Positions 12,989 through 23,543 of a stretch of 64,000 nucleotides of DNA are shown here, in pieces. The stretch covers positions 3,008,001-3,072,000 of the forward strand of contig CM000152.2 of NCBI GenBank assembly GCA_000004695.1, written 5' to 3'. Both the position numbers and the translations under genes were made by a program. The notes under the pieces were generated by a model. The model saw nothing but the letters and a program-made list of their open reading frames with translations. It ran no database searches and was not told the origin of the DNA. This stretch comes from Dictyostelium discoideum. Taxonomy: Eukaryota. Each line of letters begins with the position of its first letter. Positions within the stretch are counted from its first letter, which is position 1.

Positions 12989-15239
12989 CTAAAATTTTGT
13001 TAAAAATAAAAAATTAATTAATATTGTTTTAATATTGATTAAATAAAATAGGTTTTACATACGATCACATATTACATTCAATTGGTATTCATAAGGTAAT
13101 TCAGTATTTAAAATATAATGTAAACCTGGTGTTCTAATTGCATATTCAAAATCACCTGGAACAATATTTGGAGGCATAAAAAATTTAAATTCATATCTTG
13201 AATTAATCCATTCACCATTAATTGTTATATTATCCCATTGAGGTATTATTTGAAGATATGGATCAAATGACAATGGAGAATCATTTGTTTCAAGATACAT
13301 AATATTATAACCATATGAGTTTGTTAAATTAACATCATTAAATAAGAAACTTATATTTGATATTGATTCAACATTAAATCCTATAAAATATAATTACTAC
13401 GATTAATAAATAAATAAAAAAACAAAAAATAAATATTGTATGTTACATACCAAAATTATTTAAAACAGGATAAGATAGCAATAGTTCGGTGGAAATAGAA
13501 TTTGTATCAGTTAGCAAAATTTCAAAATCAGGTCCACTCATTATATTATATTGATAGAAAAACTCCAATTCACCATTTTTTAAATCACCACTTAATATAT
13601 TGAAATCTGTTGAATAATATTGATAAATACCATTTGATTTATAACCCCCACTATAACTATTTAATATTATACTTGAAATACTAAATTGGGTCGAATATTT
13701 CAAATAAACCCTTCTAACATTGAAAAAATAATCTTGTTCTCTATACTCTAAAATTGTTGGGCCTGATGAATCTTTGTATAATTGTGGTTAGTTAATAAAA
13801 TAAACAATAAAGGGATATAATAATATGTGATAACATACTTGTATTGGGACCATTAAAATTTATTGTTTCTCCACCAATATCAAATGTATATCCTTGATCA
13901 GATAAATTTAATGTTGTTAAAACTGAAAAATCCATTATAAATTCATTATTATTTCCACTACCATATCCAAATGGAAAACCAGCAACTGATGTGGTATCCC
14001 AAAGAAATCTTTTCCAAGTATATTCAATTTCTTTTCTATTTATTTGGTTCTTTATAAAACAATTAATATTAAATAATCTATTATTGTTCAAAACAATTTC
14101 ATTGGTTGTTATATTTGAAATATTTAATAGAAAATCTAAAGTTTTTTATTTGTTAGTTTTTTTTTTTTTTTTTTTTGTTTTTATATTTCAAAACTTACAA
14201 GTATTATTATATATTTTTTTAATTTTTGATAATTTTGAATAATTTTGATACTGTAATTTAAAGTTTAGACTCCCATAATAAATTGATTTTAGATTTATGA
14301 AATAGTTAAAGGTTCCATCAATATTACTCGAGACTACCTTTGGTTTAAATGGAGATTCCATCACATTGATATATGGATATCTTTCAATTGGTTTAAAAGT
14401 GAACCAGTATTGGGGATAGTCAAAAGAGGAAATCATTTCAAATTCGCTTGGTTCATAATGAAGTATTGTCATATTATCGTAACTAATTGAACCTATGTTT
14501 TATTTATTAGTTTGAAATCCACTACGAATATTGAAAAATATTTTTTTAAATATACATACTTTTTTTTGGGGATGGGAGATCATATTGTTCAGATCCTATA
14601 AATATACTCCAAATTGGTGAAAAATCATCTGGTGCACCCCTAAATGTTAGTTTATATTTATTAAAATCAAAAGAAAGAGATGCACTAAAAACATCAACAT
14701 TAAATGTTGATAACCATGGTGGGTCTGTATTATCTTCCAAACCTGTAATATTAACATATAAACTATATGTTGATTTAAAAAAATTAAATGTATAATTGGA
14801 AATTGGTACAAATTTTAGATTTTTAGGAGTATCTGATATTTTTTATTTTGTTAGTAAATTTTTTATTATTTTTTATTATTTTTTATTAATATTTACCATA
14901 ACATATAATTTTTTGAGGAAATATTTGGGAAGAGCTTGGATTTTTAGAAGTAACATTGACATAAAAAATTATATCTCCAATATTTGCTGAAAAATATACA
15001 GGTGAAGTGATTGTACCACTAAATTTCTCTAACTGGTATTGGAAAATAGTTGTAGTATTATCCAGGGCGACCCAATCAATGTTTTCAATTTCTTCACTGT
15101 CAATGACTATTGAAGTTTCAAAATTACATCCCCCAAATGTTGCATATTTATTTTTAAAATTTGTTTGTAAAACAAAAATTGATAAAGTAAAATTTAAATA
15201 TAAAATAATAATAACAGTACAAATAAAAAATTTATTCAT
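10896..15239 (-). CDS. Large multi-exon type-I membrane glycoprotein (~1150-1250 aa): signal peptide, IPT/TIG-like module, tenascin-type EGF module, C-terminal TM plus short basic tail. Candidate member of the Tgr/Lag (tiger) cell-surface family. Paralog 1 of a tandem array
   Basis: Exon 1 15239..14897 (MNKFFICTVIIILYLNFTLS signal peptide; donor GTAAAT). Exon 2 from 14742 (acceptor ATTACAG). Further exons correspond to minus-strand track ORFs 14546..14740, 14188..14472, 13792..14091, 13443..13703, 13055..13300; precise splice sites not all resolved. Terminal exon 12988..10896. IPT/TIG-like signature ...ISTEGGSLLIYGKFPINGDFNVEF...; EGF CRGTPICGGPTQGTCDDVLGCICNSPWVGVDCNSK; TM LAGIIVGCSVAAIAITFATIVTIY then KKKVIAKQMKTFSAKLKPMSEN*. 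Many N-x-S/T sequons. Confidence 0.65.
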
Positions 15240-16228
15240 TTTGTTACTGAAACAAATGAAAAAAAAAAAAAAAAAAAAAAAGAAAGAAAAAAAATAAAAC
15301 TTAAGAATAAAGAAATTAAAATTTTAGTGGCTTGAAAAGTTCTTTTATTGGTTTTCTAATGTTGTTCTTAGTTTTTAATAATCAATTTAAAAAAATGGGT
15401 TTCAAAAAAAAGATTCAAATAAAAGTATATAAATATTGGAGTAGTAGGCTAAAGTCTTTCCGAAAAATATAAAATAAACATAATGCTCTTAAATAGTTGA
15501 TGGGTGGGATGATTAAAAATACTTTCCTAATAATTTAGTTGGATATTTTAAAAACCAAAAAAATTAAAATCAACCCACTTTTTTCAAATAAACTTTTTCC
15601 AATTTTTTTTTTTTTTTCCCACAAGCCCAATTATTTCAATTTCATTTTAATCTTTTTTTATTAATGTTATCTGAATGTTTTTTTTTTATTGTTCATTTGT
15701 TGTTTGTGATAAATGTGTAGATGATTGTGGTGTTTGTGTTTGTATAATCTTTTCAAATTGTACTCTTTTAGATTGTGGTAATTCAAAATTAATAAATAAA
15801 AATTTTAATGGTTTTTCAACTTGACTCATTATTAATTATTTATTATTATTTATGCACTGTGTTATTGTGTTACTACTATTATAATATTATGGATTTGAAT
15901 TGGATCAATTATTTATTTGAAAAGGAATCTAAATCTGAATCTGAATTTGAATTAATTGAAATTGATTTAATCTTGTTGAAAATGGATATAAATTACATAT
16001 GCTTCAGTTTGTAAAAAAAAAAAAAAAAAATAAAAAAAATTTAAAAATATCAATAATATTGTTTTTTTAATTTTTTTTTTAATTTTTTTTTTTTTTAAAA
16101 TGATTTTTCATAATAAAAAGTGGAACGTTTTCTTGCATTAACGAAAATTTTTTTCTTTTTTTTTTTTTTTTTTTTTTTTTTTTTTTTTAGAATATTATCC
16201 TTTTCTGACCCATTTACATTCCAGTAAA

Positions 16229-22000: not shown

Positions 22001-23543
22001 TATAATTAGGTTAATAATAATTTAAATAAATAATATTAGAAATTTGTAAAAATATAATTTGTTACTTTTAAAATTAGGACCAGAGAATGAATATGAATAA
22101 CTTCCAACTGAAAATGAGTATGAACTATTTGATACATCCAACATTGTAAAAATTGAAATATCTAAATTAAAATTTTTATTATTTCCAGAACCAAAACCAA
22201 AAGGAAATGATTCATAATTTGTTTTACCACCTTCCCAATTATATTCAATTTCATTTCTACTTGTTAAATTCTCTCCTTTATAATTTAAGAATGTTAATAA
22301 ATCATCTAAATTAACTATATTTTTTGAACTTTGTAAATCTGTTGGTTCAAATTTAAAATCTTGATCTATATTTTTAATTAAAATGTTAGAAAAATAATAA
22401 AAATAAAAAAACAAAATTATAATTCTAATTCTTACATTTATAACTATTTTTATCTTGATATACATCTGAATAATTTTGAAGTGATAATGTACATAATACT
22501 TCACCAATAGAAATAATAAGTCTTGCATTAATAAAGTAGTTAAGAGATCCATCATCATAACTTGATACTATCTTTGGTAAGAAAAAAGAATCTCTTAAAT
22601 TAATATATGGATATCTTTCATTTGTTTTAATATTAATCCAAAATTGAGGATAATCAAATTTTGAATTCATATTATGATTAATATTATAGTAATCAATTAC
22701 TGCAGAATTTACATAACTAATTGAACCTTTTTTTTTTTTTAATTAATTATTAATTAACATTAATATTGTAAAGATAATCAAAATGTAAATTATTATTAAA
22801 ACTTACTATTAAATGGTGATGATATATTAAATTTTGGTGAACCATCAATGTATTCAAAAGACCATGTTTTTGGAGCAACGGTTTTTGGTGTACCGAAAAA
22901 TGTTAATTTGTATCTTCCATCATATTCATAGTCAATAGAAACTGAAAAAATACCACTCTCTGAAGTAGTAAGTCTGGGAACATATGAGACATCATCAATT
23001 AACCCACTCACATTAACATAACATGAATATGCTGATGTGAAATAATTATATGAATAACCAGATATTTGTTCAATTGTGAAATCAGTTGGAATTTCTATAT
23101 AATATAAATAAATAGATTTTTTTTTTTTTTTAATAAATGTTTAAAAAAAGGAAAATATATATATATATATTTTAATTACCCTGACACATAGGATAAGTTG
23201 TATGATATAAAAAACCACCATTTTTTGAATATGCTTTAACTCCAATTTCACATTGATTTATTGGACAATATACTCTCGCAGAAAATAACTGTGCTGTTTC
23301 ATTGTGAAAAATAACATTTACATCATTATAAGTTGTGAAAGCATTGAAACCACCCCAAGTTACATTATCCAATCCATTTAAATCTGAAACCAAAATTGAA
23401 AAACTGAATTCACATGAACCACCTATTGCATAAAAAGAAGATCCAAGTGAAAATTTAAATTCTTCAAATTTTAAATCTGAAATAACAAATTGAACAATAA
23501 ATCCAAACACCAATAAAAAATAAAAGTAAATATTAATTTTCAT
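19046..23543 (-). CDS. Tgr/Lag-like type-I membrane glycoprotein, paralog 2 of the tandem array, same architecture as 10896..15239
   Basis: Exon 1 from ATG 23543 (MKINIYFYFLLVFGFIVQFVISD signal peptide). Internal exons correspond to minus-strand ORFs 22796..23011, 22425..22670, 22022..22558 (part), 21207..21458. Terminal exon ~21163..19046. EGF CKGTPICGGATHGTCDDVLGCICNSPWVGVDCNSK; TM LAGIIVGSVGAIAIVFATVVTI then KRKKALKKEMKVFGKKMQAINN*. 3' two-thirds ~75-85% aa identical to copy 1; N-terminal exons strongly diverged. Confidence 0.65.

Follow-up and report, generated by a model that had tools for sequence, protein, structure and literature searches.

Why do two neighbouring genes encode proteins that are closely similar over more than half of their length and barely alignable at their N-terminal ends? 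The question is raised by DDB_G0280149 (gene A) and DDB_G0280157 (gene B) of Dictyostelium discoideum, which lie in a stretch of 64,000 nucleotides on chromosome 3 of strain AX4/AX2 (contig CM000152.2, positions 3,008,001 to 3,072,000 of the forward strand). This whole stretch is called the window here, and positions refer to it unless another locus is named. An earlier note on this DNA had labelled the genes tgr-like and named two possible causes of the pattern: gene conversion that homogenises the membrane-proximal stalk, or diversifying selection on the distal end, as in the binding domains of TgrB1/C1. Recurrent interlocus gene conversion of the stalk, with an ancient head and an ancient tail on either side, is the likely explanation, and the proteins, as judged by their predicted domain architecture, resemble ComC rather than TgrB1/C1.

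Gene A is found on the minus strand at 10896..15239 (exons 15239-14897, 14832-14560, 14492-14199, 14135-13839, 13771-13451, 13380-13063, and 12988-10896) and gene B, also on the minus strand, at 19046..23543 (exons 23543-23180, 23094-22807, 22726-22436, 22365-22066, 21986-21618, 21538-21221, and 21141-19046). The gene models were spliced by hand from the sequence, which in the window has 17-33% G+C, poly-Asn tracts, and short introns with GT..AG ends. The model translations have 1312 amino acids (aa) for A and 1341 aa for B and are exactly those of KAM9949670.1 and XP_641276.2. A and B are intact tandem paralogs on the same strand with seven exons each. Their six introns per gene (63-85 nucleotides (nt), GT..AG) are all in phase 1 and at homologous positions.

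Three parts of each gene, all on the minus strand, are distinguished below. The head is encoded by exons 1-5 (13451..15239 in A, comprising the signal peptide and ~510 aa without a Pfam family; 21618..23543 in B), and the two heads belong to an A-type and a B-type lineage. The core block runs from exon 6 through intron 6 into exon 7, as far as the juxtamembrane region. In A it lies at 11160..13380 with its 5' break at 13451 to ~13294, and its counterpart in B lies at 19310..21538 with the break between 21618 and ~21452. The last part is the transmembrane segment with the cytoplasmic tail (10896..11099 in A and 19046..19249 in B).

The step in identity between the two genes

When the spliced exons of A and B are aligned, exons 1 to 5 are 31, 39, 48, 35, and 39% identical in amino-acid sequence, and exons 6 and 7 are 78 and 79% identical. 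These values bear out the earlier note, which had described a conserved membrane-proximal part (~75-85% identity in the penultimate and terminal exons) next to diverged, barely alignable N-terminal exons. The peptides quoted there come from exon 6 and the start of exon 7. Exon 1 is indeed barely alignable (22-31% identity with 31 gap columns), and the head overall has 36% identity. Conserved anchor motifs nevertheless align between A and B across the whole head. Divergence is not uniform after correct splicing and alignment, and the abrupt step is located near the start of exon 6. At the nucleotide level, the p-distance in 150-nt windows changes from 0.44-0.52 to 0.12-0.23 at the junction of intron 5 and exon 6. 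In the genomic alignment, similarity starts at this junction as a step, with no gradient.

Exons 6 and 7 make up 61% of the protein, close to the membrane-proximal two-thirds that had been described as conserved. The similarity does not extend to the 3' end, however. In the last ~64 codons, which encode the transmembrane segment and the cytoplasmic tail, the p-distance between A and B is 0.31 compared with 0.13 in the core. The end of the gene has thus diverged again, which makes the conserved block an internal one. Note that tail types track head types: YKKKVIAKQMKTFSAKL is the tail of A and KRKKALKKEMKVF that of B and of a third head lineage, D (see below). In the window, the A-type tail reads YKKKVIAKQMKTFSAKLKPMSEN in gene A and the B/D-type tail reads KRKKALKKEMKVFGKKMQAINN in gene B.

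Head and core differ in age

Divergence at synonymous sites was compared using the third positions of those codons that encode an identical amino acid in both genes (synonymous-only divergence), and the saturation level was obtained by random pairing of synonymous codons from the two genes. In exons 1-5, synonymous-only divergence between A and B is 0.335-0.339, where saturation is expected at 0.31±0.035. In exons 6-7 it is 0.149-0.150, with saturation expected at 0.334±0.018. Close allelic or orthologous pairs (AX4 compared with DdW, DdR, and DcfY) have similar values in head and core, 0.04-0.08, which match those of flanking genes. Because head and core are alike in these close pairs, a difference in mutation rate or codon bias is excluded as the explanation of the step.

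The position of the change was located by a maximum chi-square scan of the synonymous-only sites. For A and B of AX4, the break is found 29 codons into exon 6 (chi-square 34.6, permutation P<0.001). In strain DdW, the break between A and B is 17 codons into exon 6 (chi-square 22.9, P<0.001); in the paralogs 6253 and 6254 of D. citrinum it is 12 codons in (chi-square 115.3, P<0.001). In codon columns of the alignment, where exon 6 begins at 566, these breaks are at 595, 583, and 578, respectively. The same scan gave no significant break in allelic controls (P=0.09-0.59). Measured against the split from the D. purpureum homologue (DICPUDRAFT_152166), the rate-normalised depth of the A/B split in the head is 0.75 [0.66-0.84], and in the core it is only 0.23 [0.20-0.26]. 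Head and core of A and B thus differ in coalescence time. Both rate and age contribute to the step in identity, and age is the dominant one. Since head and core are of different ages, selection on amino acids alone cannot produce the step.

The A-type heads have a further peculiarity. Between D. discoideum and D. citrinum, their synonymous divergence is about twice that of their own cores and of three flanking genes (L002 10001-15056 compared with window 13451-15239). At 4-fold sites it is 0.386 in the head and 0.176 in the core. By the Nei-Gojobori 1986 method (NG86), the proportion of synonymous differences (pS) is 0.43-0.49 in these heads and 0.19-0.27 in three flanking genes. Close strain pairs have no excess synonymous divergence in A-type heads. 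The A-type head lineages may predate the split of the two species, if balancing selection maintained them or if duplicates were sorted differentially.

Probable gene conversion of the core

Within the core, synonymous divergence between A and B is heterogeneous. Across 12 bins it ranges from 0.00 to 0.37 (chi-square 43.2, 11 degrees of freedom, P=1e-5), with 0.00-0.24 in the bins of the A core and 0.37 in the last synonymous-only bin, at the transmembrane and tail end. This heterogeneity is absent in orthologous and allelic controls (P=0.2-0.7). A truncated copy, C (DDB_G0280155; 17070..18700, minus strand), which sits between A and B, is a mosaic that is A-like at 18561-17861 and B-like at 17670-17411. 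The B alleles in two strains bear a short A-type patch.

The same pattern is more recent in D. citrinum. Synonymous-only divergence between paralogs 6253 and 6254 is 0.337 in the head and 0.062 in the core. Near-identical tracts of 150-300 nt are present, and the longest run comprises 61 concordant polymorphic sites (run test, P<0.0005). The head and core trees are incongruent: the head of 6254 clusters with the D. dimigraforme gene, but its core is placed as sister to 6253, each with 100% bootstrap. The proposal that gene conversion homogenises the stalk is therefore upheld by four lines of evidence: a synonymous-only divergence of 0.15 next to a saturated head, a break in three paralog pairs, mosaicism of the core, and the incongruent trees of D. 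citrinum.

Another way to obtain a young core is one old chimeric event (unequal crossover, exon shuffling, or a long conversion) followed by plain divergence of A and B. The observations that weigh against recurrent conversion are in part those that favour such a single origin. For A and B of AX4, a Sawyer-type run test is marginal (P=0.035, uncorrected), and recent conversion is weakly supported there; the run test on A and B of DdW gave P=0.0085. In the core tree, B is placed outside A and the D. citrinum pair (94% with all sites, 66% with third positions). A and B of AX4 are not grouped as sisters from the same genome, unlike 6253 and 6254. Mean core synonymous-only divergence between A and B (0.150) is also similar to that between the discoideum and citrinum A orthologs (0.163). 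No similarity between A and B was detected in intron 6 and the 3' flank, but nothing can be concluded from this, since even orthologous introns of this divergence are no more similar than chance (discoideum-citrinum orthologous introns 0.54-0.66, chance 0.50±0.06). For the same reason, intron and 3'-flank similarity was dropped as a marker of conversion. On the functional side, the model of the head described below is of low confidence overall (mean predicted local distance difference test (pLDDT) score 57), which makes its Ig-like assignment tentative, and a literature search by the gene identifiers returned no papers and no functional, expression, or population data.

We nevertheless consider a single chimeric origin improbable. 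It does not predict heterogeneous synonymous divergence in the A/B core (P=1e-5) when ortholog controls have none. Old sequence flanks the tract at either end, and this internal position is not what a simple crossover or 3' duplication would give. The same boundary has been used independently and more recently in D. citrinum. Moreover, copy C is a mosaic and short patches are common to A and B alleles. The position of B in the core tree does imply that the main homogenisation of A and B is old and possibly one event. The bulk of it may be about as old as the discoideum/citrinum split, and a single ancient event with a few later patches may account for this pair.

Under recurrent conversion, each gene is a three-part mosaic of an ancient lineage-specific head, an exchanged internal block, and an ancient lineage-specific transmembrane segment and tail. 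The internal block of ~2.2 kb, from exon 6 to the juxtamembrane part of exon 7, corresponds to the predicted DUF7035-DUF7034-EGF-ComC supersandwich region and non-reciprocal interlocus gene conversion would repeatedly have copied it from one neighbouring paralog into another. The block's coalescence would then be much younger than that of its flanks, near the discoideum/citrinum split for A and B with some younger patches. Conversion would halt where homology ends, which is at the beginning of exon 6 on one side and ahead of the transmembrane segment on the other, and the flanks would thereby be free to keep diverging. The diverged ends (the distal head at one side, the transmembrane segment and cytoplasmic tail at the other) may have become too different to recombine and may persist as ancient lineages. 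On top of this age difference, the head evolves 1.1-2.6 times faster than the stalk at the protein level, by weaker constraint and possibly episodic positive selection.

One part of the core has no synonymous-only differences between A and B of AX4 (codon columns 708-767, window ~12800-12620 and 20950-20770; ~51 informative codons). Five amino-acid differences are found in the same columns, and alleles differ there at 0.02-0.08. A very recent conversion, with amino-acid changes since then, may account for this, or it may be chance.

Possible selection on the head

The head evolves faster than the stalk at the protein level. In unsaturated allelic comparisons, the nonsynonymous to synonymous ratio (omega) is 0.57-0.67 in exons 1-5 and 0.22-0.26 in exons 6-7, and the ratio of head to core protein distance is 1.1-2.6. 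Diversifying selection on the distal end, the second cause proposed before, is not established for A versus B by this faster evolution: omega stays below 1 in the allelic comparisons, with no value above 1 seen in A/A or B/B pairs, and synonymous divergence between A and B is saturated. The per-exon Ka/Ks comparison of A with B was made, and its values of 0.8-1.1 in the head are uninterpretable because dS is saturated. These NG86 values were rejected as a sign of positive selection, since a pS of 0.43-0.59 amounts to saturation in this AT-rich genome.

The only omega above 1 was found in A2 (ACTFIW_002534), a tandem duplicate of A that is present in strains DdW and DdR and is not in the AX4 window (L001 17587-21945 of strain DdW, GCA_054859355.1). 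In exon 4, A2 compared with A has an omega of 4.6-14.6 (P=0.04-0.001), with 0.5-1.5 synonymous and 27-30 nonsynonymous changes. In exons 6-7, omega is 0.3-0.4. DdW and DdR are divergent lineages, the CR116C/OT3A-type isolates of PMC12745789. Allelic pS between AX4 and DdW or DdR is 0.05-0.10 and that of flanking genes is ~0.08 (NG86). Hyper-polymorphism in the style of tgr was therefore rejected as a reading of these pS values.

Could selection by itself have made the pattern, the whole gene having been duplicated once and being of uniform age, with a diversifying or relaxed head and a stalk under purifying selection? The faster head in unsaturated comparisons and exon 4 of A2 are in its favour, and so is the comparison with the D. 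purpureum homologue, to which the head is 24-26% and the core 35-36% identical. Still, this explanation is very unlikely. Selection on the protein cannot saturate synonymous sites at conserved head residues (0.339) yet leave the core at 0.150, and in the controls the two parts have the same synonymous rate. A head as young as the core and only 1.1-2.6 times faster would be expected to retain 53-77% identity, compared with the 36% observed. The rate-normalised depths of head and core (0.75 and 0.23) are also different.

Protein architecture, family, and fold

Exon 7 of both A and B matches, in this order, the Pfam families DUF7035, DUF7034, DUF7949 (EGF-like), and ComC_SSD, all above the gathering score. 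The ComC supersandwich domain (PF22933) is matched at residues 1037-1238 of A (E=8e-20) and 1062-1267 of B (E=2.9e-17). The same DUF7035-DUF7034-DUF7949-supersandwich order is found in four homologues (P0007, P0009, P0010, and P0021). Hydropathy places a signal peptide at residues 3-25 and a transmembrane segment at residues 1265-1290 in A, and at residues 3-24 and 1295-1320 in B. With a single C-terminal transmembrane segment and a cytoplasmic tail of ~22 aa, both are type I membrane proteins. The divergent head is then membrane-distal, as follows from the signal peptide and the C-terminal position of the transmembrane segment.

The repeats that define Tgr proteins are TIG/IPT and Ig E-set (PMC12745789; bioRxiv 10.1101/2025.10.22.684067). 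Neither IPT/TIG (PF01833) nor E-set was matched by full-length A and B in an hmmscan search of Pfam-A at E<=1, and TIG is absent from the precomputed Pfam lists of all 35 homologues retrieved. The tgr-like label, and with it membership in the TgrB1/C1 family, is not sustained by a ComC-type architecture without a detectable IPT/TIG domain. By Pfam architecture, A and B are classified as ComC-like. They belong to a small ComC-like family of type I surface glycoproteins that is restricted to group-4 Dictyostelium.

The head (exons 1-6 in this search) has no Pfam match at E<=10 in five divergent members. Word-index profile searches for head homologues returned almost nothing. When 1.84 billion representative proteins were searched exhaustively with a profile, only 7 had the head, and each of these comes from Dictyostelium. 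The heads fall into three deep lineages, A, B, and D, with ~36-41% identity between lineages. D-type heads occur in D. citrinum, in D. dimigraforme, and in a single isolate of D. cf. discoideum. Within the discoideum clade, B-type heads of different strains have 90-93% identity, compared with ~36% to A-type and D-type heads.

In every homologue threaded, exons 2-6 are 273-369 nt long (91-123 codons) and all six introns are in phase 1. Phase-1 exons of similar size are the classic layout of shuffled single-domain exons. An AlphaFold2 model of the A head, built from 9 sequences, is all-beta with a mean pLDDT of 57 (70-86 for residues 30-200). In Foldseek searches with this low-confidence model, the best Protein Data Bank (PDB) matches were generic multi-Ig chains such as titin, MAG, VEGFR-1, and ICAM-5 (E down to 1e-8), with plexin only at rank 19. 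As a tentative hint of fold class, the model suggests that Ig-like beta-sandwich modules probably follow one another along the head, each phase-1 exon encoding about one. The corresponding model of the B head (5 sequences, pLDDT 46) was unusable. Comparison of the exon-encoded head modules with each other by hhalign gave no convincing internal repeat homology (best probability 23%), and a PDB sequence search with protein A gave no relatives.

Gene models and other copies

Mis-splicing or misalignment of short AT-rich exons, to which the non-uniform annotation of gene A (RefSeq AX4 model of 1282 aa, 30 aa shorter at the start of exon 2) might point, is hardly credible as the source of the pattern, given that the A and B models match deposited proteins exactly, that A, B, and seven homologues from other genomes agree in the position and phase of every intron, and that anchor motifs align through the whole head. 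The RefSeq/UniProt model in question, XP_641272.1, lacks DTPKNLKFVPISNYTFNFFKSTYSLYVNIT. These residues, encoded at the start of exon 2 of gene A (window 14743-14832), are present in the 1312-aa model KAM9949670.1 and are conserved in gene B and all homologues. The XP_641272.1 model probably uses a wrong acceptor at exon 2.

Copy C contains part of the exon-7 region only, with a duplicated EGF module and a frameshift. Its annotated product (410 aa, 18578-17312) has no signal peptide and no transmembrane segment, and a 34-nt 'intron' is needed across the frameshift. Copy C is probably a pseudogene. An apparently longer C-like gene of 729 aa is found in D. cf. discoideum (L004 3006-5907). In the same genome (ACTFIY), a Tc5/DDE_1 transposase gene lies between the C-like copy and gene A (L004 7164-9007); it has no counterpart at that place in the AX4 window. 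For the D-type gene of D. dimigraforme (L003 8385-12699), the annotation ends prematurely and splits the terminal exon, which is single elsewhere, by three extra introns. This suggests frameshifts, from either a pseudogene or assembly errors. A second D. dimigraforme copy, at L003 2779-4869, consists of exon 7 only.

Two further genes noted in the window are on the plus strand. Between A and C, a gene at 16229-16918 has a coiled-coil-like product of 229 aa that includes a long poly-Asn tract, and this gene is conserved in other strains with a ratio of nonsynonymous to synonymous differences (pN/pS) of ~0.2. A single tRNA-Asn(GTT) gene is found at 52645-52719.

Comparison with known systems

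Topology, fold class, and analogy suggest that the proteins may be adhesion or recognition receptors in which the head provides specificity and the stalk a common scaffold; the tail, by the same reasoning, may provide signalling specificity. The idea that the DDB_G0280149-0280157 cluster is a second, tgr-independent recognition or adhesion system of group-4 Dictyostelium is speculative and, on present evidence, doubtful. If it were true, a few ancient head types (A, B, and D) with matching tails would be kept apart beyond the lifetimes of species, and a common stalk would be kept interchangeable by gene conversion. Duplication, and then positive selection acting on individual head exons as in exon 4 of A2, would generate new specificities. 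The excess divergence of A-type heads between discoideum and citrinum (0.386 compared with 0.176 at 4-fold sites) would then reflect trans-species maintenance of head lineages. In any case, the cluster is uncharacterised, fast-evolving, and variable in copy number, and its lineage-restricted heads are candidates for roles in adhesion, sorting, or prey or partner recognition.

The closest known proteins by architecture are ComC and ComC-like proteins, which have the same C-terminal order (DUF7035-DUF7034-DUF7949-supersandwich-transmembrane) and a signal peptide. ComC is listed as 'has EGF domains, S+T, group 4' (PMC4931340), and the comC mutant has aberrant aggregation (PMC2873529). Like A and B, ComC is confined to group-4 dictyostelids. 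Unlike its ComC-like relatives, the A/B type has a head of 510-540 aa that is without a Pfam family and known from 7 representatives. More distant members of the ComC-like family carry other N-terminal modules, e.g., DUF7743.

The likeness to Tgr is one of general organisation. Like Tgr proteins, A and B are type I surface proteins of D. discoideum whose ectodomains comprise several domains, tentatively Ig-like in A and B, and the genes of both kinds occur in clusters with pseudogenes and copy-number variation. In tgr genes, mosaicism, interlocus gene conversion, and a concentration of variation in the 5' (membrane-distal) domains are described (PMC12745789; bioRxiv 10.1101/2025.10.22.684067), and these features are common to A and B. 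A signal peptide with a single C-terminal transmembrane segment is also present in A and B but is not specific to Tgr. The differences are that A and B have no Pfam-detectable IPT/TIG or E-set and are ComC-type in their C-terminal architecture, and that they are arranged in tandem on the same strand while the tgr B/C ligand-receptor pair is divergently arranged. In addition, their allelic synonymous divergence equals that of flanking genes (~0.08), without the extreme polymorphism of tgrB1/C1. The corrected annotation as ComC-like means that these genes should be kept out of analyses of the tgr kin-recognition family.

Partial concerted evolution is known in tandem receptor families such as KIR/LILR, Ly49, and the exons of MHC class I/II. 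In these families, conversion tracts homogenise scaffold or stalk exons, the ligand-binding or signalling ends stay old and divergent, and intron-bounded domain exons are the units of exchange. A and B likewise have a homogenised stalk with old, divergent ends. They are of another protein family and organism, and their tract is internal, ending inside exon 7 and not at an intron. The mechanism is thus a textbook one, known from tandem receptor families and from the tgrBC locus, and its general significance is modest. What is new is the instance only: an uncharacterised ComC-like cluster with a mapped internal tract, bounded by an exon start and the juxtamembrane region, whose boundary has been reused independently in a sister species. 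It adds a clean example of partial concerted evolution, open to quantification, from a surface-protein cluster of an amoebozoan.

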